This document shows, in pieces, positions 13,177 to 36,699 of a stretch of DNA of 64,000 nucleotides. This stretch comes from Dehalococcoidia bacterium (GTDB taxonomy: Bacteria; Chloroflexota; Dehalococcoidia; Bin125). The notes under the pieces were generated by a model. It worked only from the letters and a program-made list of their open reading frames with translations. It was not told the origin of the DNA and did not search any database. The stretch covers positions 2,016,001 through 2,080,000 of the forward strand of contig OY820591.1 in NCBI GenBank assembly GCA_963555985.3. The letters are read 5' to 3'. The position numbers and the translations under genes are program-made. The stretch's first letter is position 1, and the number at the start of each line of letters is the position of its first letter.

Positions 13177-14598
13177 TTAGAGCTGGTTTCTCATGCTGGC
13201 GATGCGGCCGCGGTCGACGGGCGGGAGGTGGAAGAACTCGATCCGGGTGGTTGGCGGTTCGAGTTGGGGTTGGGCGAGTTCGTGGCAGTAGCGGTCGGCG
13301 TCGAGGAGGTCGTCGTCGCGGTCCCGGGGTTGGGGGTTGGCGGCGCGGGGGTCTCGCCACTGGTACTCCCTCATCCGGCGCGGGAACTGGACGAGCTCGG
13401 GGGTGTAGAAGGACTGAGGCGGGTCGGCGGCGAGCCGCTCTTGCACCAGGCCGATGCCCTGGTGGACGGAGCCGGGCCCGCCCCGGCTGGGGCGGATGTC
13501 GCGCCCGCGGCGGTGAAGGTGGTCGATCCAGGCGGACTGCGTGCGGTCGGCGTTCCAACTGATTGAGCCGAAGCGCCGGCGGCACTGGTGCATCCACTGT
13601 TCGAGGCGTTGGGTGACGCCCGGGCCGCGGTCCTCGAACTCGGCCAGGCGGATGAGGACATTGGGTCCGCAGACGGCATGGCGGGTGGTGAGTCCGGCGA
13701 CGATGCCGGCGGTGTAGTGGGCTTGCTCGGTCTGGGCGCCGAAGTCGAGGCCGCCGAGGTAGCGCTCGAAGCTGGGCAGGCGCTTATCCCAGAGGTGGCG
13801 TTTGGGGTCGAACTTGGGGTAGACCAGACCCTCGAAGGCGTCGAAGCGGCCCTCGATGAAGCGTTCGACCCAGTCGGGCGGGAGCAGAGCGCGCTGCTGT
13901 TCGGCGTAGTTGTCGGGGAGATGGGGGTTGTCCTCGATCTTGGCGGGGATGAAGACGGCTTGTCCGCCGGCGTGCTCGAGTTCAGCTTTGTTCAGTTCGC
14001 GTTGGACGAACCAGCGCTCGAACCAGCCCGGGTGGGGGTTGGAGGCGGCCACGAACCAGCGTTGGGGCTGGGCCGGGTGTCTGAGGCGAGTGAGCAGCAT
14101 CTGGGCGGCTTCTTCGGCGACTTCTCCGGCTTCGTCGATGAGCACGGTTCCGTACTGCTGGGAGCCGAGGCCGGTCCAGTCGGAGAGATGGCGAAAGTGG
14201 ATCGTGGAGGGTTCGCTCGAGTACTGGAGGCTGCTGACCGTGAGGGAATGGGTGGGTGAACTGCGGCGTTGGACAGTGAGGTCGGGGTCTGCGGTGCAGA
14301 TGCGCAGGAACTCGCCCATGGTCGTGGTGTAGAGGTCTGTGAACGTGTCGCGTGCGAGCAGGATGTTGTTGCCCGGGAAGATCAAGGCCGCGTCCAGGGC
14401 GAGCTCGGCCAGGGCGCGGGTCTTGCCGCCGCCCATGGCGCCGCCGTAGCCGACCAGGGCGAGGCCGGGATTGGGCACGGTAGCGACTGCGCAACAGAGC
14501 TCGCGCTGTCTGTCCGTCGGAAAAAAACCGCGAGACTTGTGCAAGCGGTCGAACGCAACGACCGCCCGCTTTGAGCTGGGGGTATTACTGTGGCTCAT
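13177..14598 (-). CDS. terL: phage terminase large subunit (orphan)
   Basis: PTDRQ adenine-binding motif, Walker A GGAMGGGKT, Walker B VLIDEAGE, motif III ASNP, DNPHL, nuclease GLDFG and DDLLDADRY. Confidence 0.88.
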   Translation of the reverse strand: MSHSNTPSSKRAVVAFDRLHKSRGFFPTDRQRELCCAVATVPNPGLALVGYGGAMGGGKTRALAELALDAALIFPGNNILLARDTFTDLYTTTMGEFLRICTADPDLTVQRRSSPTHSLTVSSLQYSSEPSTIHFRHLSDWTGLGSQQYGTVLIDEAGEVAEEAAQMLLTRLRHPAQPQRWFVAASNPHPGWFERWFVQRELNKAELEHAGGQAVFIPAKIEDNPHLPDNYAEQQRALLPPDWVERFIEGRFDAFEGLVYPKFDPKRHLWDKRLPSFERYLGGLDFGAQTEQAHYTAGIVAGLTTRHAVCGPNVLIRLAEFEDRGPGVTQRLEQWMHQCRRRFGSISWNADRTQSAWIDHLHRRGRDIRPSRGGPGSVHQGIGLVQERLAADPPQSFYTPELVQFPRRMREYQWRDPRAANPQPRDRDDDLLDADRYCHELAQPQLEPPTTRIEFFHLPPVDRGRIASMRNQL

Positions 14599-20688: not shown

Positions 20689-23607
20689 TCACACCACCAA
20701 CTCCGACCCCGGCGGCCTTGCCTTGCCTCCGTGGACGGAGGGTTCGGCGCACCATTTGGCGGCGAGTTGGCGGACTGCTTGGTAGGTGGAGTGGTCGAAG
20801 TTGAGTAGGTCGCAGATGAGGCGGCGGTCGAGGCGGGCTCGATTGGGGTCGGCGTCGGCGAGGTAGGCGGGTTTGAGGTCGCGGTTGCGGAAGTCGTCGA
20901 AGATGTCTTCGGCGGTTTGGAGTTGGTCGTCGCTGAGCGAATTCAGATCGAGTACGGGCAAGTTGTGCATTGTCTTAACAGTCATGTCGCCTCTCCCTGA
21001 CTGAGAGCGATTCGAATGCCACCAATAGAGAAGCAGCCCAAGTGTAGAATTTCCCCACACTGCAAAGGCGTAGTCGTATGAATCCGTGTCGAAGGTCACA
21101 TTCGGCCAGGCGCGGCCTCCAGCGGTTTTCACTTCAGTCATGGCTACTGCGAGAGGCTGAGACGTAAAGCGGAACCCTCTGCTGAGGTGAGCGCGGCTAG
21201 CGGATTTCCAAAGGTCAGCCGCTTTCAGTTCCATACCCTTACGTACGACGAATTGGGAATCAGGCTGGCAGACCATTTTAGTTTCGTGTTTGGCGTCGTG
21301 TTTCCACAGCACTGGATAAGTAGCAGTTGGGCTAGCAGGTCCTTTTGCAAATGGTCCTTTGTGGGCAGGACTGATAAACAACTGGGAATCGATGCCGCGA
21401 TGTCCTACATGGCCCAAGGGCTTGATCGGTAGATTCGCAGGCTGCGGATTGGTTGGGAGCCACAGCTTTCCATCGGAAAGGGAAGCTGCGACCTGACCGA
21501 CGGTCGCGTCCGAGAGTCTTGCGGCTCCCCATCCCGTGTCGGAAACCGGCGCAGGAGCCTCTAGAGTTTCTCCTCTTAGTTCGCTGCCGACCGACAAAGC
21601 GGTGCCCCCGTATGGTCCATCCTCGATTTTTCGTATCGACAGATGGCTAGCGAGGTTCCCGGACATACCGGCTGCGTCGGCAAGGTTCCGAGGGCGATCG
21701 AGAACCGAGGTGAACTTACCGCGGGAATCAGCGCCGCCTGATGTGCCTTTCTTAACTCGCTTTCTGGCAATCACCAGACATTCAGCCATCCCGGTATCGT
21801 TGGAGAATGACAACGCTTGATCGCCGCTCTCGGCTATGGTCAGGACCTCAATATCTTCATACTCTGTTGCGAGTAGCTTCCGCACTTTCTGCCAAGAAGA
21901 TGCGTTGACCATCGATGCAAGCAATACGAAGGCCATCACGCCTCCGGTCTTCAGCTTGCGATGTGCTATCGTGATGAACGCCGATCCTAGACCTGCATGG
22001 CCATGATATGTGGAACCCTTGGCTAGTTTGGCCAGCAGAGCTGCCATGTCGGCCTGGTCGTCCTCTTTCGCGTTGAATGCCGCGAACGCTGCGTTGAGCA
22101 CGCCGTCTTCCGCATCGAAGTGTTTGGTGTTGCTCGTGAAGGGCGGATTCATGATCACCAGGTCGAAGCCGCCGTCGGGGATATCGACGGTGACTTGGGC
22201 GGCGGTCTGTTCTCCGGCGCTGCCGGTTTGGAGGGCGGGGTCGCTGGTGTTGAAGAGGGTGAGCAGGTTGGAGGCTTGCAGCAGTTCGAGCGAGCCGATC
22301 TGGACGCTGCCGTCGTCCTGGCGTCCGTAGGGCATGGTGTAGAGGCGGGACTGTTGATAGCCGAGGTTAGGCTGCGCGCCGGCCAGGGTGGCGCCGGTGA
22401 TGTGGACGGCGGAGGGCATCACGTCGCAGCCGTAGAGGACTTCCTCCATCATCGCCGTGTGCAGCTTGGCGGGGTCGCCGCCGGCGCGCTCGTGTTTGGC
22501 GGCGATCTGCTCGTAGGCGGCGGAGAGCAAGGCGCCGGTGCCGCAGGCGAAATCGCCCACGCGGAGCTTGGCGATCCGCTCGGCGTCGCTCCAGTCGATG
22601 TCTTGCAGTTTGGCCACCGCTAGACGCGCCAGCAGCGCCGCCGATGCGGGCCGGGTGTAGAAGGTGGCGAGGTACTTGCGGTCGGAGATCAGGCGCTGGA
22701 AGATGCGTCCGGTCAGGTTGTGGGCGTTGTCGATGCCGGCGGCGTCGACTTCTTGGGCGGTGTCGCGCAGTTCGTCCAGCAGTTGTTTGGCAGCGCCCGA
22801 GGGGAGTTGCTGGAGGATGTCGCGGGCGATGGCGAAGATGGGGAAGTAGTTGATGTCGAGGATCTGATCCCAGGTGGCCAGGGTGTCTTTCTGGGGATTG
22901 GCGCTGCCGGGTCCGCAGACGAGATTGAGCGGTTTGACGCCCGCGTGCATTCCGGCGATGCGTTCGTGGAAGACGAGGGCGTTGGCGATGATGGCGCAGG
23001 CCATGCGCCGCGTTTGGGGGACGTTGCGCATTCCGAGCAGGTCGGAGACGGCGCGGACGATGTGCATCTGGGTCTCGCTGATCGCGTCGAGGACGACGGC
23101 GGCGCGTTGGATGCCGGATTGGAGAGTGTCGGCGGCTTCGTCTACCTCTTTCTGAGGTACGGAAACGAGCCGGATGAGGTCGGCGAGGTCTTCGAGTCCG
23201 CCTTCGAGCCAACCGGATTGGGGGAAGCGGCTGGGGGGCAGATCGCCTTCGTCGTAGCGGACGCACCAGGAGAGCCGGGTTTCGCGCAGAGCGGTTTCGA
23301 GGTCGGCGGCGGACTTGAGCTCGGCGGGGTAGCGCAGGGCGATGGCTGCTTCGACGGGTCGGGGTTGTCCGACGATGTTCTTGGCCAGGCGACTGGCGGC
23401 CTCGCTCTCGGCGTTGGAGGCGGGCATGAATTCGGCTTCGAGGGCGACGGGGGAGCGTCCGGGCGCGGTGATCAGGTTGTCGATTTGGAGGGCGGGGTTG
23501 TCGGGGATCAGGCCGGTGTGCTCGGAGCGGACGAGGCAGGTTTGCATCATCGCTTGGAGGAGTTTGCCGAGTGCGGCGTTGACGGTCGGTTCGGTCTGGT
23601 TGGGCAT
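20689..23607 (-). CDS. type IIG-like restriction-modification enzyme / amino-methyltransferase (972 aa)
   Basis: Probable true start MPNQTEPTVN at 23607; ATFYT, motif I DFACGTG, motif IV IMNPPF; N-terminal D..ALEAE nuclease-like segment; C-terminal TRD. Confidence 0.8.
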   Translation of the reverse strand: MPNQTEPTVNAALGKLLQAMMQTCLVRSEHTGLIPDNPALQIDNLITAPGRSPVALEAEFMPASNAESEAASRLAKNIVGQPRPVEAAIALRYPAELKSAADLETALRETRLSWCVRYDEGDLPPSRFPQSGWLEGGLEDLADLIRLVSVPQKEVDEAADTLQSGIQRAAVVLDAISETQMHIVRAVSDLLGMRNVPQTRRMACAIIANALVFHERIAGMHAGVKPLNLVCGPGSANPQKDTLATWDQILDINYFPIFAIARDILQQLPSGAAKQLLDELRDTAQEVDAAGIDNAHNLTGRIFQRLISDRKYLATFYTRPASAALLARLAVAKLQDIDWSDAERIAKLRVGDFACGTGALLSAAYEQIAAKHERAGGDPAKLHTAMMEEVLYGCDVMPSAVHITGATLAGAQPNLGYQQSRLYTMPYGRQDDGSVQIGSLELLQASNLLTLFNTSDPALQTGSAGEQTAAQVTVDIPDGGFDLVIMNPPFTSNTKHFDAEDGVLNAAFAAFNAKEDDQADMAALLAKLAKGSTYHGHAGLGSAFITIAHRKLKTGGVMAFVLLASMVNASSWQKVRKLLATEYEDIEVLTIAESGDQALSFSNDTGMAECLVIARKRVKKGTSGGADSRGKFTSVLDRPRNLADAAGMSGNLASHLSIRKIEDGPYGGTALSVGSELRGETLEAPAPVSDTGWGAARLSDATVGQVAASLSDGKLWLPTNPQPANLPIKPLGHVGHRGIDSQLFISPAHKGPFAKGPASPTATYPVLWKHDAKHETKMVCQPDSQFVVRKGMELKAADLWKSASRAHLSRGFRFTSQPLAVAMTEVKTAGGRAWPNVTFDTDSYDYAFAVWGNSTLGLLLYWWHSNRSQSGRGDMTVKTMHNLPVLDLNSLSDDQLQTAEDIFDDFRNRDLKPAYLADADPNRARLDRRLICDLLNFDHSTYQAVRQLAAKWCAEPSVHGGKARPPGSELVV

Positions 23608-23757
23608 GGGGTCAGGATATTGCGGCTTGACGAACCGAAGCTGGTAGCTCTCGGAATTGTGGTCTGATCGTTCTGCACAACGAGTCGCTCCGGCGCGGCT
23701 CAGCGAACTCCGTGCGGCGTTTCTGGCGGCCCTGCGAGGGCTCTCTATACTCCGGGC

Positions 23758-24933
23758 ATGAGCGAACCGGGTTTGCGTGAAGAGCTTCGCAATTTGCAGG
23801 ACACGACTGCGATTGTGGGGGTTGGGACGACGGAGTTTGGGGCGATTTACCGGGATCTGGATCCGGAGCGGTCGGCGTATGAGTTGGGCTTGATTGCGTT
23901 TCGGGAGGCGCTGGCGGACAGCGGTTTGCGGAAGTCGGAGATTGACGGGGTGATTGTCTCGCGGTTGCCGCACTATGGGCGGATGTGCGAGATGATTGGG
24001 CTGCGGCATCCGCGTTTCGTGAACGTGTTGCCTGGGGAGGGGCGGCAGTCGGGGATCGCGTTGCAGTATGCGGCGCTGGCGGTGGCGAACGGGATGGCGT
24101 CGGCGGTGGCCTGCATTTACGGCAACAACGGGCGCTCGGCGGGGGCGCGCTACGGGGGGGAGAATCGGGGTCTGACGCCGCAGGCGATGTTCGAGGCTCC
24201 GTATGGGATGACGTCGCCTGGGGCGGTGACGTCGTTGATGTTCCGGCGGCATCAGTACCGCTACGGGACGACGACGGAGCCGCTTGGCCACTTGGCGATC
24301 TCGAATCGGGCGAACGCGGCGCTCAATCCGAATGCGGTGATGCAGAAACCGATCACGATGGACGACTACTACGGGGCTCGGTACATCGCGGAGCCGCTGT
24401 GTCTGTTGGACTACTGCCTGATCAACGACGGCGGGGTGTGTTTCATTGTCACGTCGGCGGAACGGGCGCGTGATCTGAAGCATCCGCCGGTGCTGGTACA
24501 CGCGACGTCGCAGGCGTCCGATCTCACGCCCGTCTATGTGGCCGACGACTTCTGGTATACGCCGATGGCGCAGATTGCGGACGATCTGTTCGCGATCTCG
24601 GAGGCGCAACGCGAGGACTTGGCGTTTGCGCAGCTCTACGACAACTTCACGCCGACGATGCTGTTCACGCTTGAGGGGATGGGTTTTTGCGAGCCGGGCG
24701 AAGGCGGCGACTGGATTACGCCGGAGCGGATCAACCTGCGCGGGGAGCTGCCGCTGAATACGGGCGGCGGGCATACGAGCGAGTCGTACATGCAGGGTTG
24801 GGCGCTGCACGTTGAGGCGGTGCGGCAACTTCGGGGAGAGTGCGGCGAGCGTCAGGTGGCGGACGCCCAATACGGCCTCTACGCCTGCGCAGCGCCGCTG
24901 GCGACCGGGCATATTCTCAAGCGCGACGACTAG
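23758..24933 (+). CDS. SCP-x-type thiolase-family protein (Ltp2-like)
   Basis: AIVGVG, NPNAV, PLCLLDYCLINDGG, QLYDNF and NTGGGHTSE motifs. Confidence 0.87.
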   Translation: MSEPGLREELRNLQDTTAIVGVGTTEFGAIYRDLDPERSAYELGLIAFREALADSGLRKSEIDGVIVSRLPHYGRMCEMIGLRHPRFVNVLPGEGRQSGIALQYAALAVANGMASAVACIYGNNGRSAGARYGGENRGLTPQAMFEAPYGMTSPGAVTSLMFRRHQYRYGTTTEPLGHLAISNRANAALNPNAVMQKPITMDDYYGARYIAEPLCLLDYCLINDGGVCFIVTSAERARDLKHPPVLVHATSQASDLTPVYVADDFWYTPMAQIADDLFAISEAQREDLAFAQLYDNFTPTMLFTLEGMGFCEPGEGGDWITPERINLRGELPLNTGGGHTSESYMQGWALHVEAVRQLRGECGERQVADAQYGLYACAAPLATGHILKRDD

Positions 24934-24946
24934 CGGAGATCGAACG

Positions 24947-25384
24947 ATGACCACTGAGACCAGCGAGGGCCAGTCCTACGAGAAGCCGCTGCCGCCGATC
25001 ATCCAGTTGACGAAGCCGTTCTGGGACGGCTGCCGCGAGGGTGAGCTGCGGATTCAGTTCTGCAACATCTGCGACAAGCCCTGGTTCCCACCGGCGGAGG
25101 CGTGTCCGCGCTGTCTGATGAACGACTGGGAGTGGCGGGCGATCAGCGGTCGGGGGCGGGTGTGGTCGTGGATCCGGATGTGGCAGCGGTATTTCCCGGG
25201 TTGGAGTGCGGAGGAGTATCCCTACACGGTGGCGCTGATCGCGCTCGAAGAGGGTCCGTACATGTACTCGACGCTGGTCGGGATCGAGGACAGCGATGTG
25301 AGTTGTGATCTTGAGGTCGAGGTGGATTTTCGGGTGGTGAACAAGGAGGTGACGTTGCCGGTGTTTCGGCCAAGTCGAGGATGA
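24947..25384 (+). CDS. DUF35 Zn-ribbon/OB-fold acyl-CoA-binding protein
   Basis: PFWDG, CNIC..CPRC, SGRGRVWS, PY, LEEG and PVFRP motifs; follows the thiolase. Confidence 0.9.
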   Translation: MTTETSEGQSYEKPLPPIIQLTKPFWDGCREGELRIQFCNICDKPWFPPAEACPRCLMNDWEWRAISGRGRVWSWIRMWQRYFPGWSAEEYPYTVALIALEEGPYMYSTLVGIEDSDVSCDLEVEVDFRVVNKEVTLPVFRPSRG

Positions 25385-25390
25385 TTGCCA

Positions 25391-25987
25391 ATGCCTGACG
25401 AGCTGCCGCTAGAAGACGGATGGCCCGCACGCGACTTCGACGAAGACGCTCGCGCGTACTTGCTAGAGGAGGGTCGTCAGCGTGTACAGGCGCAGCTTGC
25501 GCACCTGCGGGCGCAAGATGTCAAGGTTGCCGCGCTGTTCACGGCGAGCGCTGGCCTGTTTGCGCTGAGTGGTCTGTTTGGCGACTTGAGAGTGGAAGCT
25601 ACCCCCGAAGCCGTATTGACCTTCATGGGCTTCTTTGCTTCGTTGGTCGCATGGTCCTTCTTGGGGCTCGCATACTGGACGCGGGACATGGGTGTCGGCT
25701 TGGACTTGGAGATTGTCCGAAGGTACTACGGTCGCGCATCGAGGCAAGAGCTTCAAGATGCGGCCTTAGAGGCCTTAGTCGCGGGTTTCATCCTCAATCA
25801 GCAGACGATTAGAGCAAAAACGCAATGGCTACAGAAGTCATTCTTTGCTGTGGCGACTCAACTGCTGCTGCTGTTCGCGGCGATCGTCGCCGCTGCTATC
25901 GCGTCTCCTGGTGATCTCGCGCCTCAAGATTCAACGGCGGCCGGCAGTTCGCAATCAGGCACCGTTCTTGTCGATGGTGAGCGGTAG
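25391..25987 (+). CDS. 3-TM membrane protein, Pycsar-effector-like topology (copy 1)
   Basis: Three hydrophobic segments; QDVK, AYxxR..GxDL and NxxxxxxK pattern shared with 28576..29064. Confidence 0.75.
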   Translation: MPDELPLEDGWPARDFDEDARAYLLEEGRQRVQAQLAHLRAQDVKVAALFTASAGLFALSGLFGDLRVEATPEAVLTFMGFFASLVAWSFLGLAYWTRDMGVGLDLEIVRRYYGRASRQELQDAALEALVAGFILNQQTIRAKTQWLQKSFFAVATQLLLLFAAIVAAAIASPGDLAPQDSTAAGSSQSGTVLVDGER

Positions 25988-26086
25988 CGGGCGACGGCGC
26001 GGTTCGGCGGGCTTGGGTGCTTGTTCGCCTGTGCCAGCGCCCTTTGGCTGCTCAGTTCTTGAAGTTCGTTGGTCTACAGTCGCCAT
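25955..26086 (-). CDS. small antisense peptide (43 aa) MATVDQRTSRTEQPKGAGTGEQAPKPAEPRRRPLPLTIDKNGA
   Basis: Manual translation, below the ORF-track cutoff; GAGGA SD 5 nt upstream; overlaps the 3' end of the membrane gene by 33 bp. Confidence 0.5.
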   Translation of the reverse strand: MATVDQRTSRTEQPKGAGTGEQAPKPAEPRRRPLPLTIDKNGA

Positions 26087-26130
26087 CTCAATCCTCGCTG
26101 CCGCTGGCCATCCTCGTTGCTTTGACTTTC

Positions 26131-27297
26131 TCATCTTAGCAATTCCAGCTCGCTGAGCACCTCTGCCTGATGCTCTCCGAGCCTCGGGGCCGGGCGAGTC
26201 GGCACCGAGACCGGCGTCCCCTCGAAGTCCCAGGGTGGGGCGATCTGGCGGCTGATTGAGCCGTCGGATTCTTGGACTTCGACGATTGCTCCGACAGCTG
26301 CGACCTGCGGATCGTTGCTGAGGCGCTCGTAGTCGTGCATGGGGAAGGCCCAGCCGCCCCAGCGTTCGACGATCTCAATTACGTGCTCGGCGTCGTGATT
26401 GGCGAAGCCGCGCTCCCAGAGCGGGTTCAGTTCGGCGGCGTAGCGGCCGGCGCCGCCGGCGCCGTCGGTGCGGAGCTTGTCGTAGTCGGGGTGCTCGCGG
26501 GCCCAGTCCATACCGAGTTCGTTGATGAGACCGTCAAAGGCGTCGCCGCGCATTCGGGCAAGGGAGAAGTAGATCGGCAGATCGCGGCACTGGTAGCCGT
26601 GGTCCGGGGGTTTGACGTAGCTGTCGAGGTGGAAGCCCCACCACTCGTCGGGGTTGGAGAGGGCGACCCACATCGTGGAGCGCATCGCGATCAGGCTGCC
26701 GAACAGTGAGACCTCGACTCGCTGGCCGCCGGTTGGATGAGCTAGATCACTGTCATCGCGCGCATAGAGCGCGGCGCAGATGGCCTGGATTGCGTGGTTT
26801 GCGGCGAAGACGGAGCCGATGTCGCTGCCGTGGCGGACCGGCGGCTCGCCGATGCGTCCGAGCGACGCGGTGGCTTCGCTCGCCATTTGGGTCGCGAGTT
26901 CCGAGGCGGGGCGGTCGGCCCATGGTCCTTGCGGTCCGAAGCCTGAGACGGCGCAGTAGACCAGTCCCGGAGCATCGAGTCGCTCCCAACGAAGCTCGGT
27001 GGGCAAGCCGTGCTTGTCCACTACAGCGACATCGGCCTGGGTCAGCAGGCTCCGCGCGGTTTGCACGTCTTCGTCGGCAGACCAATCCAGGACGATCCCG
27101 CGCTTGTTGCGGTTGAGGGCGCGGAAGAGCGCAGAGTCTTCGCCGGCGGATGGGGCCCAACCGCGCGAACGATCTCCGCGTGGCGGTTCAATCTTGATCA
27201 CGTCGGCGCCGGCGTCTGCGAGCGACATGGCGGTGTAGGGGCCGGCGACGCCTTCGGCGATTTCGACGACGCGGTAGCCGTGCAGAGGGCCGGGCAC
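26131..27297 (-). CDS. family III (CaiB/BaiF) CoA-transferase subunit
   Basis: PLHGYRVVE, GADVIKIEPPRGD, NRNKR and APRLGEH motifs; catalytic Asp position appears to be Ser. Confidence 0.9.
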   Translation of the reverse strand: MPGPLHGYRVVEIAEGVAGPYTAMSLADAGADVIKIEPPRGDRSRGWAPSAGEDSALFRALNRNKRGIVLDWSADEDVQTARSLLTQADVAVVDKHGLPTELRWERLDAPGLVYCAVSGFGPQGPWADRPASELATQMASEATASLGRIGEPPVRHGSDIGSVFAANHAIQAICAALYARDDSDLAHPTGGQRVEVSLFGSLIAMRSTMWVALSNPDEWWGFHLDSYVKPPDHGYQCRDLPIYFSLARMRGDAFDGLINELGMDWAREHPDYDKLRTDGAGGAGRYAAELNPLWERGFANHDAEHVIEIVERWGGWAFPMHDYERLSNDPQVAAVGAIVEVQESDGSISRQIAPPWDFEGTPVSVPTRPAPRLGEHQAEVLSELELLR

Positions 27298-27299
27298 GG

Positions 27300-28517
27300 C
27301 TAGTCTCCGAGCGCTTCGGTGAGTTCGGGGGCGGGTTCGCGCCGGGCGGCTAATTCGTCCAGGATCTCTCCGGTGTGCTCGCCCGGCAGACAGGCCCCAA
27401 ACCAGCGGGCCGGGGTGCGGGACAGCTGCCAGGGGGCGCCTCCGGTCCAGACTTTGCCCCAGCCCGAGGTCTCTACTTCGCGCAGGTAGCCGTTCTCGAT
27501 GGCCTGGGCGTGATGCTGCAAGGTCTCGAAGGAGATCGGGTAGCCGCAGGGCACTTCCGCTGCGCTCAGCCGCAGCATCCAGTAGTGGCGAGGACGCTGC
27601 TCGAACGCGGCTTGGAGTAACGCCGCTAGCTCACTTCGGCGAGCCACGCGGTCTCGGTTGGTGCGCCAGCGTGGATCTTTCGCCAGTTCGTTGATGCTTT
27701 CGACCTCCGCCTCGGACTTTCGCATTGTTTCGGCGAAGCGCTGCCACTCGTCTTCGCTGGTGACGGAGACTCCGATCCAGTCACCCCACTGGCACTGGAA
27801 TGCCTGATCGGGGGCAGCCGCGAACGCGGCCGATCCGAGGGGCCGGTGCAGATTGCCGGTGCTCAGGTATTCGGCGATGCGTCCGCTCTGGAGGGCCATG
27901 CCGGCTCGGAGCATTCCGACGTGGATGCGCTGACCCTGGCCGGTGCGCTTGCGGGCTAGCAGCCCCATCAGGATCGCCTGGGCGGCGACATTGCCGGTGG
28001 TGGCGTCGATCTGGGCCATGTGGCGGTAGACCTCGGGGCGACCGCCTTCGGCTCCGCTGAGCGACCAGAAGCCGGTGAAGTATTGGGCCTGCACATCGGC
28101 ACCGGGGCGGTCGCGCATGGGCCCGACTTCGCCCCAGCCGGTGATGGCGGTGTAGATGATGTCGGGATTGATCGCGGCGACCTGCTCGTAGGCGACGCCC
28201 ATGCGCTCGGCGGCGCCCGGGCGCATGTTGATGAGGAAGACGTCGCAGGTTTGGAGGAGCTCGTACGCGGTTGCGCGATCGGCGGGGGACTTGAGGTCGA
28301 GGAAGAGGCCGCGTTTGTTCTGGTTCCAGGTCATGTAGCCGATCGAGGTGCCGTTGATCGAGGGCGGGACGCCTGCGCCGAGGGTGCGCGGGTCGACTCC
28401 GGGCTGCTCGATGTGGATGACATCGGCGCCGAGCGCGCCGAGCTGGGTGGAGGCCCAGGGGCCGACCATCCAGAGCGTCAGATCGAAGACTCGCACTCCG
28501 TCAAGTGGTCCGGGCAT
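27300..28517 (-). CDS. family III (CaiB/BaiF) CoA-transferase subunit
   Basis: PLDGVRVFDL, LGADVIHIE, NQNKR, NMRPG, QIDATTG and PGEHT motifs. Confidence 0.92.
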   Translation of the reverse strand: MPGPLDGVRVFDLTLWMVGPWASTQLGALGADVIHIEQPGVDPRTLGAGVPPSINGTSIGYMTWNQNKRGLFLDLKSPADRATAYELLQTCDVFLINMRPGAAERMGVAYEQVAAINPDIIYTAITGWGEVGPMRDRPGADVQAQYFTGFWSLSGAEGGRPEVYRHMAQIDATTGNVAAQAILMGLLARKRTGQGQRIHVGMLRAGMALQSGRIAEYLSTGNLHRPLGSAAFAAAPDQAFQCQWGDWIGVSVTSEDEWQRFAETMRKSEAEVESINELAKDPRWRTNRDRVARRSELAALLQAAFEQRPRHYWMLRLSAAEVPCGYPISFETLQHHAQAIENGYLREVETSGWGKVWTGGAPWQLSRTPARWFGACLPGEHTGEILDELAARREPAPELTEALGD

Positions 28518-28575
28518 GTCGGCCTCCTGTCAGGGGCATGATAGTCGGCGCCTAGACTGAGGCTCGGAGGCGGCG

Positions 28576-29064
28576 ATGGCGGACACGGGGGACCGGGCGG
28601 GCGTGTTCTACGAGATCGTGCGTTGGCGTCTGGACGAACAGTCCGCTCATCGGGCGGCGCTCAACGCGCGGCTGGCGACCTTTTTCGCGACTGCTACGGC
28701 AGTGCTGGCACTCTTCGCGGCGCTGATCCAATGGGGTCCCGGCGAGCTCGAGTTGCCAGGGGCGTCGGCCGGTCTGTTGATTGCGGCGATCGCAGTTTAC
28801 GCGAGCATGATCGGGGTGTCGCTGGCAGCGTACAGCGACCGCAGCTGGAATTTCGGCCCTGATTTGCGTCGGCTCCAGCAGATACAACAGCAGGTGGAAC
28901 AAGAAGCATTGCAGGGCTGGATTACGGCGCAGATGCTTGATGCGGTCGAGGAGAATAACGAGCGGCTGAGCAATAAGGCTTCACTGGTCTGGCTTGCGGT
29001 GGTGCTCAGGGGGTTGGATGTGCTTTTGCTGGCTTCAGCCGCGCTTGTCGCGACGCTTGTCTAA
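28576..29064 (+). CDS. 3-TM membrane protein, Pycsar-effector-like topology (copy 2)
   Basis: TAGACT -10-like box and GGAGG SD; aligns with 25391..25987. Confidence 0.78.
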   Translation: MADTGDRAGVFYEIVRWRLDEQSAHRAALNARLATFFATATAVLALFAALIQWGPGELELPGASAGLLIAAIAVYASMIGVSLAAYSDRSWNFGPDLRRLQQIQQQVEQEALQGWITAQMLDAVEENNERLSNKASLVWLAVVLRGLDVLLLASAALVATLV

Positions 29065-29220
29065 GACCCGGTTCCAGAACTGCTTCCACATCGGGGCTTC
29101 CCAGATCGGAATCAATCCTCGGTTCACTCGCGCTTGGTCGGTGTGGCTGGAAGCAGGCAAAGCGGAACACGGTTGGGACGCCGACGACGAATCGCGACTC
29201 GCGCCTGTGGACTGAGCCAT
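29035..29220 (-). CDS. small antisense peptide (61 aa) ending DKRRDKRG
   Basis: Strong AAGGAG SD 6 nt before ATG; overlaps the 3' end of the membrane gene by 30 bp. Confidence 0.6.
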   Translation of the reverse strand: MAQSTGASRDSSSASQPCSALPASSHTDQARVNRGLIPIWEAPMWKQFWNRVLDKRRDKRG

Positions 29221-29347
29221 GCTGATCTCCTTATCGGCTCGAGCGGTCAGATTCCTTTAGGCGGCTAGGCTGCGTCGCCTTGCGCCCCCACGGCTTGCGG
29301 AGTCAGTCTACCTATCCCGCACCGCGCTCACATCAGCCGTCCGGCGG

Positions 29348-29665
29348 CTAGCCGCCGCCGCGTTGGGCTTTGAGCATGAAGCGGTCGAAGATGTGGTCGA
29401 GGCGCTGCTCGCTGGCTGCGCTGAGGACGAAGTGGTGCTCTTCGATTTGGGTGCTGAGGAGGGGGTGGAAGCGGCGGCGTTCGGTTCGCCAGGCGACTTG
29501 CCAATCAGGGGCGGACATGGCTCCTTCGGGCGGGGTGAGGGCGTCGGGGTCGGTTGGGCCGGGGGGCGGGATGTCGGAGTCGGTTGCGCCCAATTGCTCC
29601 AGGTACTGCTTGAGCAGCCAGATGGGGACGCCGCGGAGGGTGAACTGTCGCACTGCTTGCGCCAT
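29348..29665 (-). CDS. DUF1952-like (MoaD-associated C-terminal domain) protein
   Basis: RGVPIWLLKQYLEQLG N-terminus and QRGGG C-terminus; AGGAG SD; aor and moaD lie within 6 kb on the same strand. Confidence 0.65.
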   Translation of the reverse strand: MAQAVRQFTLRGVPIWLLKQYLEQLGATDSDIPPPGPTDPDALTPPEGAMSAPDWQVAWRTERRRFHPLLSTQIEEHHFVLSAASEQRLDHIFDRFMLKAQRGGG

Positions 29666-29828
29666 CCGACTCCTTCTTCCTTCTGGATCCGAATCGAGGA
29701 CTCATCATCGGGTATCAGGGCTACAGACGCCAACCCGGCGCTCAGTGGGAACATCAGCAGGTATCCAGGCAGCAAGTCTCAACGCTCAAGCTGTCCGGCA
29801 TCGCGCCTCAGGCCTCGGGGGCAACTGA

Positions 29829-31534: not shown

Positions 31535-31728
31535 GCGTACCATCAGACGTACTCAGACAGAGCGGATTTGGCAACTGGAGTCGCAATGGGAAGTGAGTCT
31601 CAGTTTACATTCAGCGGATGAGATCGCAGCGATTCGCTCTGCGAACGACTTGCCAGTCGGGGGCGGATACGGCTGCGTCGGGCGGGGTGAGGGCGGCGAG
31701 CGTGGTTGCCGCCACGTAAGCTCAGGCT

Positions 31729-35650: not shown

Positions 35651-36214
35651 ATGACGACGACTGCCACAACCATCGCGCTGCCACGCGCACCCGACCTGTC
35701 GAGGGCCGAGTTCGAGTTCGAGCACTCCAGAAACGAAGCGGTTCGCTCGGCCAATCGAGAACTCATTCGCGAGCGCTTTCCGCGTCACTGGACAGTGGTG
35801 TACGAGGGTGGACACCTAGCGGCGTTCGACGATCCACAGGAGTTTCTCGCATTTCTCAGACGTTTGGGCCCATTCGCCGGAGACAGCGCTTCCGCTAGAC
35901 CACCGTGGTCCTTGGCCGACGATTCATCTCGATCTAGGAAGGCCAGTGAACTGTCAGAACAATCCAGGCGCGAATGGGAGCGTAATCGCGCCTTCTGGAA
36001 CGCACACCACAAGCAGTTGGTGTCTGACCATCCGCACGAGTGGATAGTCGTCTACGGCGGAGGCAATGTCGCAACCGCAGCCGACCAACGTGAATTGTGG
36101 GTACTCCAGCACGGCTGTGATCAGGCGACCTGGGACGTCAGCCTGCGATCATCTCCGCGAAAGCCGCTCTATCGCTGGATGCCGCGACAGCCAGATCGCT
36201 CAACCAGCAAGTGA
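35651..36214 (+). CDS. protein with two tandem DUF5678-like domains
   Basis: RNEAVRSANRELIRERFPRHWTVVYEGG and RNRAFWNAHHKQLVSDHPHEWIVVYGGG. Confidence 0.65.
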   Translation: MTTTATTIALPRAPDLSRAEFEFEHSRNEAVRSANRELIRERFPRHWTVVYEGGHLAAFDDPQEFLAFLRRLGPFAGDSASARPPWSLADDSSRSRKASELSEQSRREWERNRAFWNAHHKQLVSDHPHEWIVVYGGGNVATAADQRELWVLQHGCDQATWDVSLRSSPRKPLYRWMPRQPDRSTSK

Positions 36215-36699
36215 CCAGAATCGTCAACGGTTGGTTGCAGGCGGAAGATCGTTTGATCTCACATCAAATCCTGGACGATCTGGCACCATTCGTCTCTTGC
36301 CGGGTCGCCGTCGGCGACGACGAATTCGATGTCGATTTCCTCATTGACTCGGGATCCGATGCGACTACTCTCATGCTAGAGGATGCTTACCGACTGCTGA
36401 GTGACCGATTCTTTGAGTTGCCGTTCGCTCAAGACGGATCAGGAATCGACATCCACGGCGTCGGCGGCAGTTATCGGGCGCTTCCGTTCGATGCCACACT
36501 CATCCTGAAAGACCAGTACGACGATCCGATCTTGCTCCGCCAGATCATCTGGATCGCCGAGCCGACTCCGAGCGAACCGTCGATCAGCGGCAACTGGGAA
36601 ATTCCCTCCATCTTCGGTCGTGACGCCATCCGACCTGGCGACTTCGAACTGAGCTACATCAAAGGAACCGCCACCCTCATCCGCCCCGACGACGAGTAG
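36211..36699 (+). CDS. clan AA retropepsin-like aspartic protease
   Basis: FLIDSGSDATTL catalytic motif, GVGG flap and SIFGRD; GTGA overlap with the upstream gene. Confidence 0.8.
   Translation: MTRIVNGWLQAEDRLISHQILDDLAPFVSCRVAVGDDEFDVDFLIDSGSDATTLMLEDAYRLLSDRFFELPFAQDGSGIDIHGVGGSYRALPFDATLILKDQYDDPILLRQIIWIAEPTPSEPSISGNWEIPSIFGRDAIRPGDFELSYIKGTATLIRPDDE

Follow-up and report, generated by a model that had tools for sequence, protein, structure and literature searches.

A convergent gene pair of the Dehalococcoidia that may join a membrane effector to a guarding mini-protein

Type I toxin-antitoxin loci, such as txpA/RatA and bsrG/SR4, produce convergent transcripts that overlap at their 3' ends. 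Neutralisation by a protein is known from Bacillus subtilis, where the toxin SpoIISA is described as having three membrane segments, and SpoIISB as a small, natively disordered antitoxin that wraps the cytoplasmic domain of SpoIISA (PMC3057836). A further report describes PycTM as a protein that disrupts membrane integrity once it has been activated (PMC11224242), and SLATT proteins, which have two to three membrane helices, are presented as predicted pore-forming effectors that pass from one conflict system to another (PMC9226505). Here we analyse a stretch of 64,000 nucleotides (nt) from a Dehalococcoidia bacterium (assembly GCA_963555985.3, contig OY820591.1, positions 2,016,001 to 2,080,000; ‘the window’, to which all coordinates refer unless given in Mb or with a contig). 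It contains two cassettes in which a gene for a membrane protein and a gene for a mini-protein are read towards each other. A first-pass annotation, made from the sequence alone, had described the cassette at 28576..29220 (copy 2) as an anciently diverged duplicate of another one (copy 1), with a layout kept by selection on the pair.

The window almost certainly carries two copies of a two-gene module whose genes are inherited, duplicated and lost together and in which a membrane protein of about 160 amino acids (aa), a three-helix bundle with three membrane-spanning segments at one end, is combined with a convergently encoded mini-protein, the two stop codons lying within a few bases of each other and each membrane subfamily having its own type of partner. 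As to its function, we assign a rough probability of 0.4 to the reading that the pair acts like a toxin-antitoxin or abortive-infection system, in which a pore-type membrane effector would be restrained by its cognate disordered mini-protein; the pair, as a putative membrane effector with a small-protein guard, is assigned to no Pycsar, CBASS (cyclic oligonucleotide-based antiphage signalling system) or toxin-antitoxin family.

In copy 2, the membrane gene (28576..29064, + strand) is an open reading frame (ORF) for 162 aa, and the small ORF (29035..29220, - strand) encodes 61 aa and ends with TGA; the two overlap by 30 nt (29035-29064). A Shine-Dalgarno-like AAGGAG, read from the sequence, is located 6 nt ahead of the small-ORF ATG (29227..29232, -), and the small protein has a Ser-rich N-terminus, which looks disordered when judged by its composition, and a terminal DKRG. 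The features recorded in the first-pass annotation, including two TAGACT boxes that are discussed below, were correctly placed. Hydrophobic segments of the membrane protein lie at approximately residues 33-52, 64-86 and 137-160, and its AlphaFold2 model consists of helices 6-52, 62-87, 97-104 and 109-161 (predicted local distance difference test, pLDDT, 90.5; predicted template modelling score, pTM, 0.79). Relatives of this protein are 29-57% identical to it.

The pair shares with type I toxin-antitoxin systems the convergent genes, the abutting or overlapping 3' ends and a membrane-active (here putative) product on one strand. It differs from them in that the membrane protein has 152-200 aa, compared with less than 60 aa for a type I toxin peptide, and in that the opposite strand specifies a conserved hydrophilic protein, with constraint at the amino-acid level, and not just an RNA. 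The likeness to SpoIISA-SpoIISB is one of logic, as a membrane toxin neutralised by a small disordered protein is also what we propose here. No sequence relation was seen, however, and Pfam scans of the window proteins returned no SpoIIS family. Moreover, SpoIISA has a GAF-like cytoplasmic domain, whereas the cytoplasmic part is predicted to be the end of a helical bundle in the present case, and spoIISA and spoIISB form a one-strand operon, whereas the genes described here converge and the toxicity of their product is putative.

Both ORFs of copy 2 are real genes. The membrane gene has a GC content by codon position of 0.69/0.45/0.74, which is similar to that of the neighbouring genes. The small ORF is less gene-like in this respect than its neighbours (0.54/0.59/0.72), and a run of 40 stop-free codons has an estimated chance of about 0.36 at 65% GC. 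In addition, a tblastn search of 61 genomes with the single 61-aa sequence found nothing significant (best E-value 0.0025), and the ESM Atlas yielded no usable match for it. These findings would suit an ORF that is open by chance in GC-rich DNA. Nevertheless, this explanation is extremely improbable in the light of the positional orthologues. One weak tblastn match adjoined the best membrane homologue, and its locus (L006) proved to be syntenic: the gene for a 105-aa protein is followed by a 72-aa ORF, and next come the oppositely oriented membrane gene and a CoA-transferase gene. In the window, the gene for this 105-aa protein (29348..29665, -) flanks copy 2 on the same strand as the small ORF and upstream of it. 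With the 105-aa protein as bait, 30 loci were collected, the window's own locus being counted. A membrane homologue separated the 105-aa gene from the CoA-transferase gene in 10 of them, window included, and each of these 10 loci also had a small ORF in the same orientation as the 105-aa gene; both genes were absent together from the other 20. The CoA-transferase gene followed the 105-aa gene directly in 11 of these empty loci, the two overlapping by up to 10 nt or lying up to 70 nt apart, and the remaining 9 showed other arrangements with neither membrane gene nor small ORF. In one of the 10 occupied loci (L043) the membrane gene is broken and the small ORF intact. Two metagenome loci that had been found with an alignment of membrane proteins (L156 and L157) likewise carry the copy 2 small ORF.

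The small proteins from all 10 loci have the signature V-[D/N/T]-[R/Y]-G-[L/I/F]-x-x-[P/I]-W, which corresponds to the block RVNRGLIPIWEA of the 61-aa ORF (29095-29130, -). V32, G35 and W40 are invariant among the 10 orthologues, R34 and P39 are conserved in at least 90% of them, and the V, G and P positions are each written with four different codons. A profile of the 10 proteins retrieved 11 database clusters of 61-74 aa, which other pipelines had called as genes and which are named ‘hypothetical protein’ only. This invariant block with its varied codons, the strict co-presence with the membrane gene, the database clusters and the Shine-Dalgarno sequence all argue against a chance ORF. The terminal DKRG, on the other hand, is common to none of the 10 orthologues. 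As it lies opposite the part of the membrane gene that encodes the last helix, it is probably the result of read-through to the first stop codon. The membrane protein of copy 2 is 29-40% identical to its positional orthologues, as compared with 56-65% for the adjoining 105-aa protein.

Of the 65 genomes of the window's bacterial family, 56 contain the 105-aa protein itself, with 53-65% identity in most of them. It belongs to no family, a weak match to DUF1952 (E 0.031) being the only one obtained. A fragment that resembles its residues 40-81, with two stop codons inside, is located about 2 kb away (31584-31700, -; G000:C1:2047584-2047700).

In copy 1, the membrane gene (25385..25987, +) encodes 198-200 aa, with a start at TTG 25385 or ATG 25391. 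The small ORF facing it can be read as 59 aa from a first ATG at 26134 (26134..25955, -), or as 43 aa from a second ATG at 26086 (25955..26086, -) that has GAGGA 5 nt ahead of it; it overlaps the membrane ORF by 33 nt, and its product ends with DKNGA. Since the orthologous small proteins start with M-A-T-A-K.. at the second methionine of the window's protein, the product of copy 1 is probably the 43-aa protein that starts at the second ATG. The first ATG of the 59-aa reading overlaps the stop codon of a CoA-transferase gene as ATGA (26131-26134), an overlap that the orthologues do not have. Syntenic orthologues of the membrane gene were found in 24 further loci (35-65% identity, with 38-64% listed by the locus search), and a small ORF is located between the stop of the membrane gene and the stop of the upstream CoA-transferase gene in all 25 syntenic loci; 23 of these small ORFs were found by a regular expression, and those of L059 and L060 (..RRPLPRVIDKNGA) were read by eye. 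Their common ending is [R]-R-P-L-P-x-[T/S/K/V]-...-G-[A/L/G/P], represented in the window by RRPLPLTIDKNGA (25958-25996, -), and in the 23 loci found by the regular expression the P, L, P and G never vary, although they are written with 4, 6, 4 and 4 different codons, respectively. The AlphaFold2 model of the copy 1 membrane protein (pLDDT 75) has helices at 18-60, 72-96, 106-112 and 118-171, followed by a tail (174-198) with pLDDT<50. The tail beyond the third hydrophobic helix is not conserved, and several orthologous membrane proteins stop directly past this helix without any overlap with the small ORF. As the block of the small ORF is kept despite this shortening, what is conserved here must be the small ORF, and not the tail of the membrane protein.

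A C-terminal K-x-G motif had been proposed for the small proteins of both cassettes. For copy 1 this view can be maintained, the motif taking the form [K/R/T]-x-G-[A/L] with G invariant in 23/23 loci, and similar C-termini recur in other short-type partners, which end with ..VERGL, ..LDRGL or ..VTKGL. For the DKRG of copy 2 it cannot, as the counterpart recognised by eye is the internal ..RVNRGL.. of the V-D-R-G-L-x-x-P-W block.

Direct comparison of the two cassettes by BLASTP gave no significant result for the membrane proteins (E 0.10) or for the two small ORFs (E above 1). Their kinship becomes visible with profiles: hhalign aligned 8 copy-2-type with 15 copy-1-type membrane proteins over 147 columns at a probability of 97.6% (E 4.1e-12), and the copy 1 membrane query matched copy 2 orthologues elsewhere with E-values of 1e-4 to 1e-5 per genome. 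Judged by these profiles and by the predicted helix plan, which is common to the AlphaFold2 models of both copies, the two membrane proteins are remote paralogues, as the first-pass annotation had suggested from scattered shared residues; profiles are needed because the homology is invisible to direct BLASTP. The residues conserved within the membrane family, W17, R18, E21, Q22, N127 and K134, are located at the end of the bundle opposite the membrane-spanning segments. The mini-proteins (35-75 aa) consist of a variable, low-complexity and poorly alignable N-terminal part and a short conserved block, which has three forms, namely hydrophobic-P-P-P-G-P-x-hydrophobic-x-hydrophobic-[E/D/K]-[R/K]-G-[L/A], R-P-L-P-x-T-I-x-x-x-G-A (copy 1) and V-D-R-G-L-x-x-P-W (copy 2).

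Selection on the pair as a unit, which had been proposed for the two cassettes, turned out to reach further than that. A search with a profile of 31 membrane-family members (A3) showed that the 65 genomes of the window's bacterial family have between 0 and 14 copies each, with at least one copy in 45 of them, and that four genomes of one genus have none at a completeness of at least 95%. Among the first loci inspected, a convergent partner could be read by eye for all 16 paralogue genes except that of L017, the types being ..[L/I/V]PPPGP..hydrophobic.., the V-[D/Q]-[R/W]-G block of the copy 2 type, and a variant in L012 (GRLPPGKLDIVY). The window's own genome has seven membrane-family ORFs (at 0.56, 1.56, 1.58, 1.70, 2.04 (two) and 2.18 Mb), five of which have a clear partner and two a likely variant one (..KLPPHPKPGRTII and ..KKLPIKIVKRSL, each followed by the stop codon).

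The enrichment of convergent partners over control frames was examined in 40 loci from the membrane search, with 46 membrane ORFs, that had not been seen before. The motif [LIVFWMY]PP[PGR], which was picked after the first loci and counted on loci fetched later, occurred in the convergent downstream frames of 34/46 ORFs, as compared with 6/46 on the same strand downstream, 12/46 upstream on the convergent strand, 12/46 upstream on the same strand and 8/46 antisense inside the gene, the genome background being 0.24 matches per window. Some of the upstream control matches represent neighbouring pairs of tandem arrays, and most of the 12 held-out misses have variant partners when read by eye (..GVEPPWTLYF.., or ..KLPPASKPEYLDRGL and ..DLHPPGHDDIPARF up to the stop codon). 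As the motif is a post hoc choice and the loci come from related, non-independent genomes, more weight should be given to the difference from the control frames than to any p-value. With a looser rule, a proline-type convergent ORF was found for 87 of 105 distinct membrane-family ORFs. The stop-to-stop gap of these 87 pairs has a median of 9 nt and a range of -104 to +200, with 30 overlapping pairs, 32 pairs at 0-30 nt and 25 farther apart. The 30-nt overlap and the shared register of the two cassettes, which had been regarded as selected features, are not conserved and find no support as such.

Several further observations concern the arrangement of the pairs. Tandem arrays were found with three membrane-plus-partner pairs in L151 (G002:C3:661900-666100) and with two pairs in L116, L126 and L142, and two tandem copies of the small ORF lie beside a single membrane gene in L116, L124 and L074. 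Partners are often located 3' of a host gene on the same strand that, read by eye, is ion-channel-like or short-chain dehydrogenase-like with an ending ..EDITVL (L002, L016, L019, L121, L125; L003, L015, L089, L127-L129 and others); the module thus tends toward the 3' end of a host transcription unit. The C-terminal extensions of two membrane proteins (P0055 and P0068), which were considered as natural fusions with the partner, look like read-through opposite the partner gene. In L101 (G300:C8:2822-6211), a membrane-family domain ends an open frame of 494-533 aa beside a type IV secretion coupling-protein-like gene, perhaps as a fusion carried by a conjugative element.

The membrane family was also found in 24 of 401 genomes sampled across the phylum, a tally that includes G426, a genome flagged unpublished, the locus of which was not used. 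Outside the window's bacterial family the convergent proline motif was at background (5/22 versus 6/22 on the same strand; 22 ORFs from 20 loci), and in many loci the membrane gene is instead followed immediately by a small ORF of the same orientation. In all three genomes of one genus of the same class (L091, L092 and L096), the membrane gene is located between gyrB and relA/spoT, and an acidic same-strand ORF of 88-94 aa with a conserved ..DPRLFSPLQ.. begins at or overlaps its stop. Same-strand small ORFs with ..KPPPIRPHPELDHIVERG.. and ..KRPPPIRADLDLAVIIRSG.. occur in two other bacterial families, and such ORFs with ..RLSNLI[L/E][E/Q]GGK.. in three loci. A post hoc regular expression (hydrophobic-hydrophobic-[EDRTK]-x-G) matched 10/20 same-strand downstream windows versus 1, 1 and 3 of 20 in the controls. 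A narrow hidden Markov model (HMM) of 8 short partners missed the distant same-strand small ORFs (best E 0.65), so that the homology of same-strand and convergent partners rests on the reading by eye and the post hoc expression. A same-strand version of the pairing may thus extend across the phylum, and we regard this pairing with flipped orientation as a lead and not as a result. The neighbours in the loci outside the bacterial family are heterogeneous, with no Pycsar-type cyclase among them.

The close apposition of the convergent genes raises the question of whether the small ORF is mainly a cis-acting regulator, in which case its transcript, antisense to the 3' end of the membrane gene, would silence this gene through convergent transcription or RNA pairing to an extent set by ribosome pausing at polyproline. 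The stops that abut or overlap at a median gap of 9 nt and the PPPG-type runs in many partners are in line with such a role, as is the finding that no terminator-like site was detected in 25200-29800. Yet the partners of copy 1 (RPLPxT) and copy 2 (VDRGLxxPW) have no polyproline run and are equally conserved, and where there is a run, conservation with synonymous codon change extends to the non-proline residues that follow it. Moreover, similar-looking same-strand small ORFs were recognised in other families of the phylum by eye and with the post hoc expression, and antisense action would be impossible there. We therefore consider a mainly cis-acting role unlikely.

With respect to transcription initiation, the TAGACT boxes upstream of both copy 2 genes had been described as -10-like. 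The one on the plus strand (28553..28558) lies 17 nt 5' of the membrane-gene ATG and is followed by GGAGG. A TAGGCT/TAGACT/TAAGCT/TTGGCT box was found 17-22 nt 5' of the ATG in 10/10 copy-2-type membrane genes, aligned by eye, within a conserved stretch ..CATGATAGGTC..TAGGCT..GGAGG... The plus-strand TAGACT, which matches this conserved putative box, thus appears to be more than a chance occurrence, even though the word itself occurs 5 times in the window versus 6.6 times expected. The same cannot be said of the minus-strand TAGACT (29305-29310), 85 nt upstream of the small ORF, as 5/10 orthologous loci have TAGAAT or TAGTGT, read by eye, at about 30 nt ahead of the small ORF, and the window's box is off this position. 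A generic sigma-70 scan of the region gave no match, and no RNA family is listed for it.

Neither protein of the pair is annotated in any of the sources consulted for sequences; Pfam, NCBIfam and PHROGs have no family for them, and a narrow literature search found no published description of such a pair. The profile search of the membrane family that had been recommended in the first-pass annotation was performed exhaustively with HMMER and retrieved 3943 representatives at E<=1e-3, of which 1080 reach E<=1e-10. An alignment of 8 membrane sequences found two loci in metagenome contigs. A sequence search of the PDB gave nothing below E 0.24, and fold searches returned generic helical bundles only (best E 0.5 with Foldseek in the PDB and 0.22 in BFVD), the best Z of VIA-align, 12.3, being under the level deemed meaningful for helical bundles.

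A weak but consistent signal was obtained with the defence models of PADLOC. Counted at E<=0.1, with models that have no curated cut-offs, the CBASS ‘Effector 2TM’ model matched 13/31 members (best 2.8e-7), two PycTM models (PDLC02363/02364) matched 13/31 and 12/31 (best 2e-8), and the reverse transcriptase (RT)-associated SLATT model matched 2/31 (best 8.5e-7). In the window itself, copy 2 matched RTasSLATT only (9.8e-5), and copy 1 matched PycTM at 0.004. The likeness to PycTM includes the size (models of 154-160 positions) and an N-terminal helix with a hydrophobic hairpin; the PADLOC alignments mostly cover positions 7-82, and one is near full length (residues 17-161 versus positions 8-158 of 164). 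In the ESM Atlas, the closest clusters (0.95 and 0.94) have PF18967 PycTM assigned to 11% and 33% of their members. Furthermore, the AlphaFold2 models of both copies have the helix layout of SLATT proteins, two to three membrane helices with flanking helices, which is also a likeness to the CBASS ‘2TM’ effectors. Taken together, these sequence matches suggest that the membrane family is weakly related to PycTM, CBASS 2TM and SLATT effectors. There are differences, however: the Pfam model of PycTM is unmatched, no PycC is found beside any copy examined, and the invariable neighbour is a convergent mini-protein. The scores for SLATT and CBASS ‘2TM’ are under the curated thresholds, and no nucleotidyltransferase, reverse transcriptase or other sensor gene adjoins the pair in the window. 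Sub-threshold matches were also obtained to the mycobacterial membrane families Rv2743c/PspM (4/31, best 8.4e-5) and Rv2732c.

On this basis, the product of the membrane gene would be a membrane-damaging effector of the PycTM, CBASS-2TM or SLATT kind. From the distribution of charges, its N-terminal helix and the helices between membrane segments 2 and 3 would face the cytoplasm. The mini-protein would bind this cytoplasmic end through its proline-plus-hydrophobic block and thereby hold the effector closed, and the loss of this short-lived partner, for instance when its synthesis is halted by a disturbance of translation, would set the effector free. Translation of PPPGP depends on elongation factor P (EF-P), and ribosomes stall at such runs when EF-P is lacking. 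Convergent transcription towards abutting or overlapping 3' ends without a terminator would, in addition, couple the two genes by antisense. As in protein-protein toxin-antitoxin pairs, the two genes behave as a unit, both present or both absent in 30/30 junction loci, and one product is small and, by its composition, apparently disordered.

A more far-reaching version of this proposal, which we consider rather doubtful, is that the pair founds a new class of suicide or defence modules made up of two genes, namely a stand-alone PycTM/SLATT-like pore former that is controlled by a short-lived mini-protein plug and not by a nucleotide signal. A polyproline-plus-hydrophobic peptide would then plug the helical bundle at its cytoplasmic end. 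With EF-P-dependent PPPG(P) runs and a converging gene with an abutting 3' end, any upset of host translation or transcription, such as phage takeover, would stop the production of the plug and open the pore.

The composition of some partners (e.g. ..RKPRPDLPPPGPEVL..) also brings to mind the reverse distribution of roles, in which a proline/arginine-rich mini-protein would be the active component, targeting ribosomes or chaperones in the manner of proline-rich antimicrobial peptides, and the membrane protein would serve as immunity or export factor. Bacteriocin loci are known to combine a small peptide with an immunity protein that is itself a small membrane protein of several helices. However, the small proteins have no leader or signal segment that could be recognised by eye, the Pfam scans of the window revealed no processing or export genes among the neighbours, the partners of several classes are acidic or neutral by composition, and the membrane proteins show kinship to effectors and not to transporters. 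This reversal of roles is therefore very unlikely. In view of the first two of these findings, nothing favours peptide signalling either, one of the functions contemplated in the first-pass annotation.

Several findings weigh against the view that the membrane protein is an effector under the guard of the mini-protein. Pfam has no family for the membrane and small proteins of the window or for 25 membrane representatives, with sub-threshold noise only. The PADLOC models lack cut-offs, and hydrophobic helices draw spurious similarity. PF18967 reached a best E of 0.84 in a six-frame search of the window's own genome, and this outside the paralogues (gathering score 27.2 bits); it had no match in the window proteins at E<=0.1, and it is not among the matches listed for the A3 members (25 of the 45 families matched at E<=1). 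SLATT_5 of NCBIfam scored 16.1 bits against a cut-off of 60, with 2/8 copy-2-type members matched (best 1.1e-4), and the Pfam SLATT_5 model matched only 1/31 members (E 0.061). No cyclase or other sensor gene adjoins the cassettes, and the class III cyclase homologues (PF00211) of the same genome, at 0.44, 0.82 and 1.04 Mb, are not near any of the paralogues. PHROGs matched 0/31 members, and viral contigs searched with the 8-sequence membrane alignment contained no relative. Besides, the held-out motif was chosen after the first loci had been inspected, and counts from related genomes overstate the number of events. To our knowledge, protein-protein toxin-antitoxin pairs are seldom encoded by convergent genes. 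Lastly, the neighbours identified by the Pfam scans of the window are metabolic genes, with no defence island, and the fixed place between gyrB and relA/spoT in another genus looks like that of a housekeeping gene.

Some of these findings would be expected of a membrane complex without any role in conflict, that is, a lineage-specific scaffold or stress component with the mini-protein as cytoplasmic adaptor or regulator, the copies resulting from ordinary expansion of paralogues. Besides the metabolic neighbours and the gyrB-relA/spoT place that is fixed in 3/3 genomes, the weak Rv2743c/PspM and Rv2732c matches and the failure to find a link with phages or mobile elements among viral contigs and PHROGs are consistent with such a complex. 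It would not, however, lead one to expect 0 to 14 copies within one bacterial family and none in near-complete genomes of the same genus, the alternation of presence and absence at one syntenic junction, or the tandem arrays and the divergence of the module at a higher rate than its flanks, which are traits of accessory or selfish genes. Copy number, junction polymorphism, arrays and fast divergence are more readily reconciled with a selfish or defence module than with a housekeeping complex; as there is no defence island and the place in one genus is fixed, we regard the non-conflict complex as possible, if doubtful, and continue to prefer the guarded effector.

The surroundings of the cassettes are as follows. 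The assembly comprises 3.33 Mb in 11 contigs (completeness 96%, contamination 7.5%), and the GC content in the window ranges from about 0.57 to 0.68. Two family III CoA-transferase genes (27300-28517 and 26131-27297, -; PF02515, E 4.5e-94 and 5.2e-68) lie between the cassettes. To the left of the cassettes there are a thiolase-like gene and a ChsH2-like gene (zinc ribbon/OB), and to the right, beyond the 105-aa ORF, a prephenate dehydrogenase-like gene. Farther away, an Eco57I-type restriction-modification methylase-like gene is located at 20692-23670 (-; PF07669, E 1.1e-7). The program-called ORF that contains it (1421 aa, 20689..24954) continues through the antisense strand of the thiolase-like gene (23758-24933). 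Between 18 and 22 kb the GC content falls to 0.57-0.60. Amid metabolic genes there is an ORF that resembles a phage terminase large subunit (13180-14598, -; PF03237, 2.1e-9) and may be a prophage remnant. Finally, a 162-aa ORF at 36211-36696 (+), with a gene-like codon GC of 0.61/0.41/0.69, has no Pfam match and was not among the hits of the membrane-family profile in this genome.

If the preferred reading is correct, membrane effectors so far met only at the end of nucleotide-signalling defence pathways would also occur in modules that are complete in themselves, with a mini-protein as guard, in the form of a simple and portable pair of about 650 bp. This would provide a function for several thousand unannotated membrane proteins (3943 representatives) and for unannotated mini-proteins of 35-75 aa (11 and 15 clusters found). 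Irrespective of function, the pair represents a clean case of small proteins in GC-rich genomes that are recognisable only through synteny and codon-level constraint.

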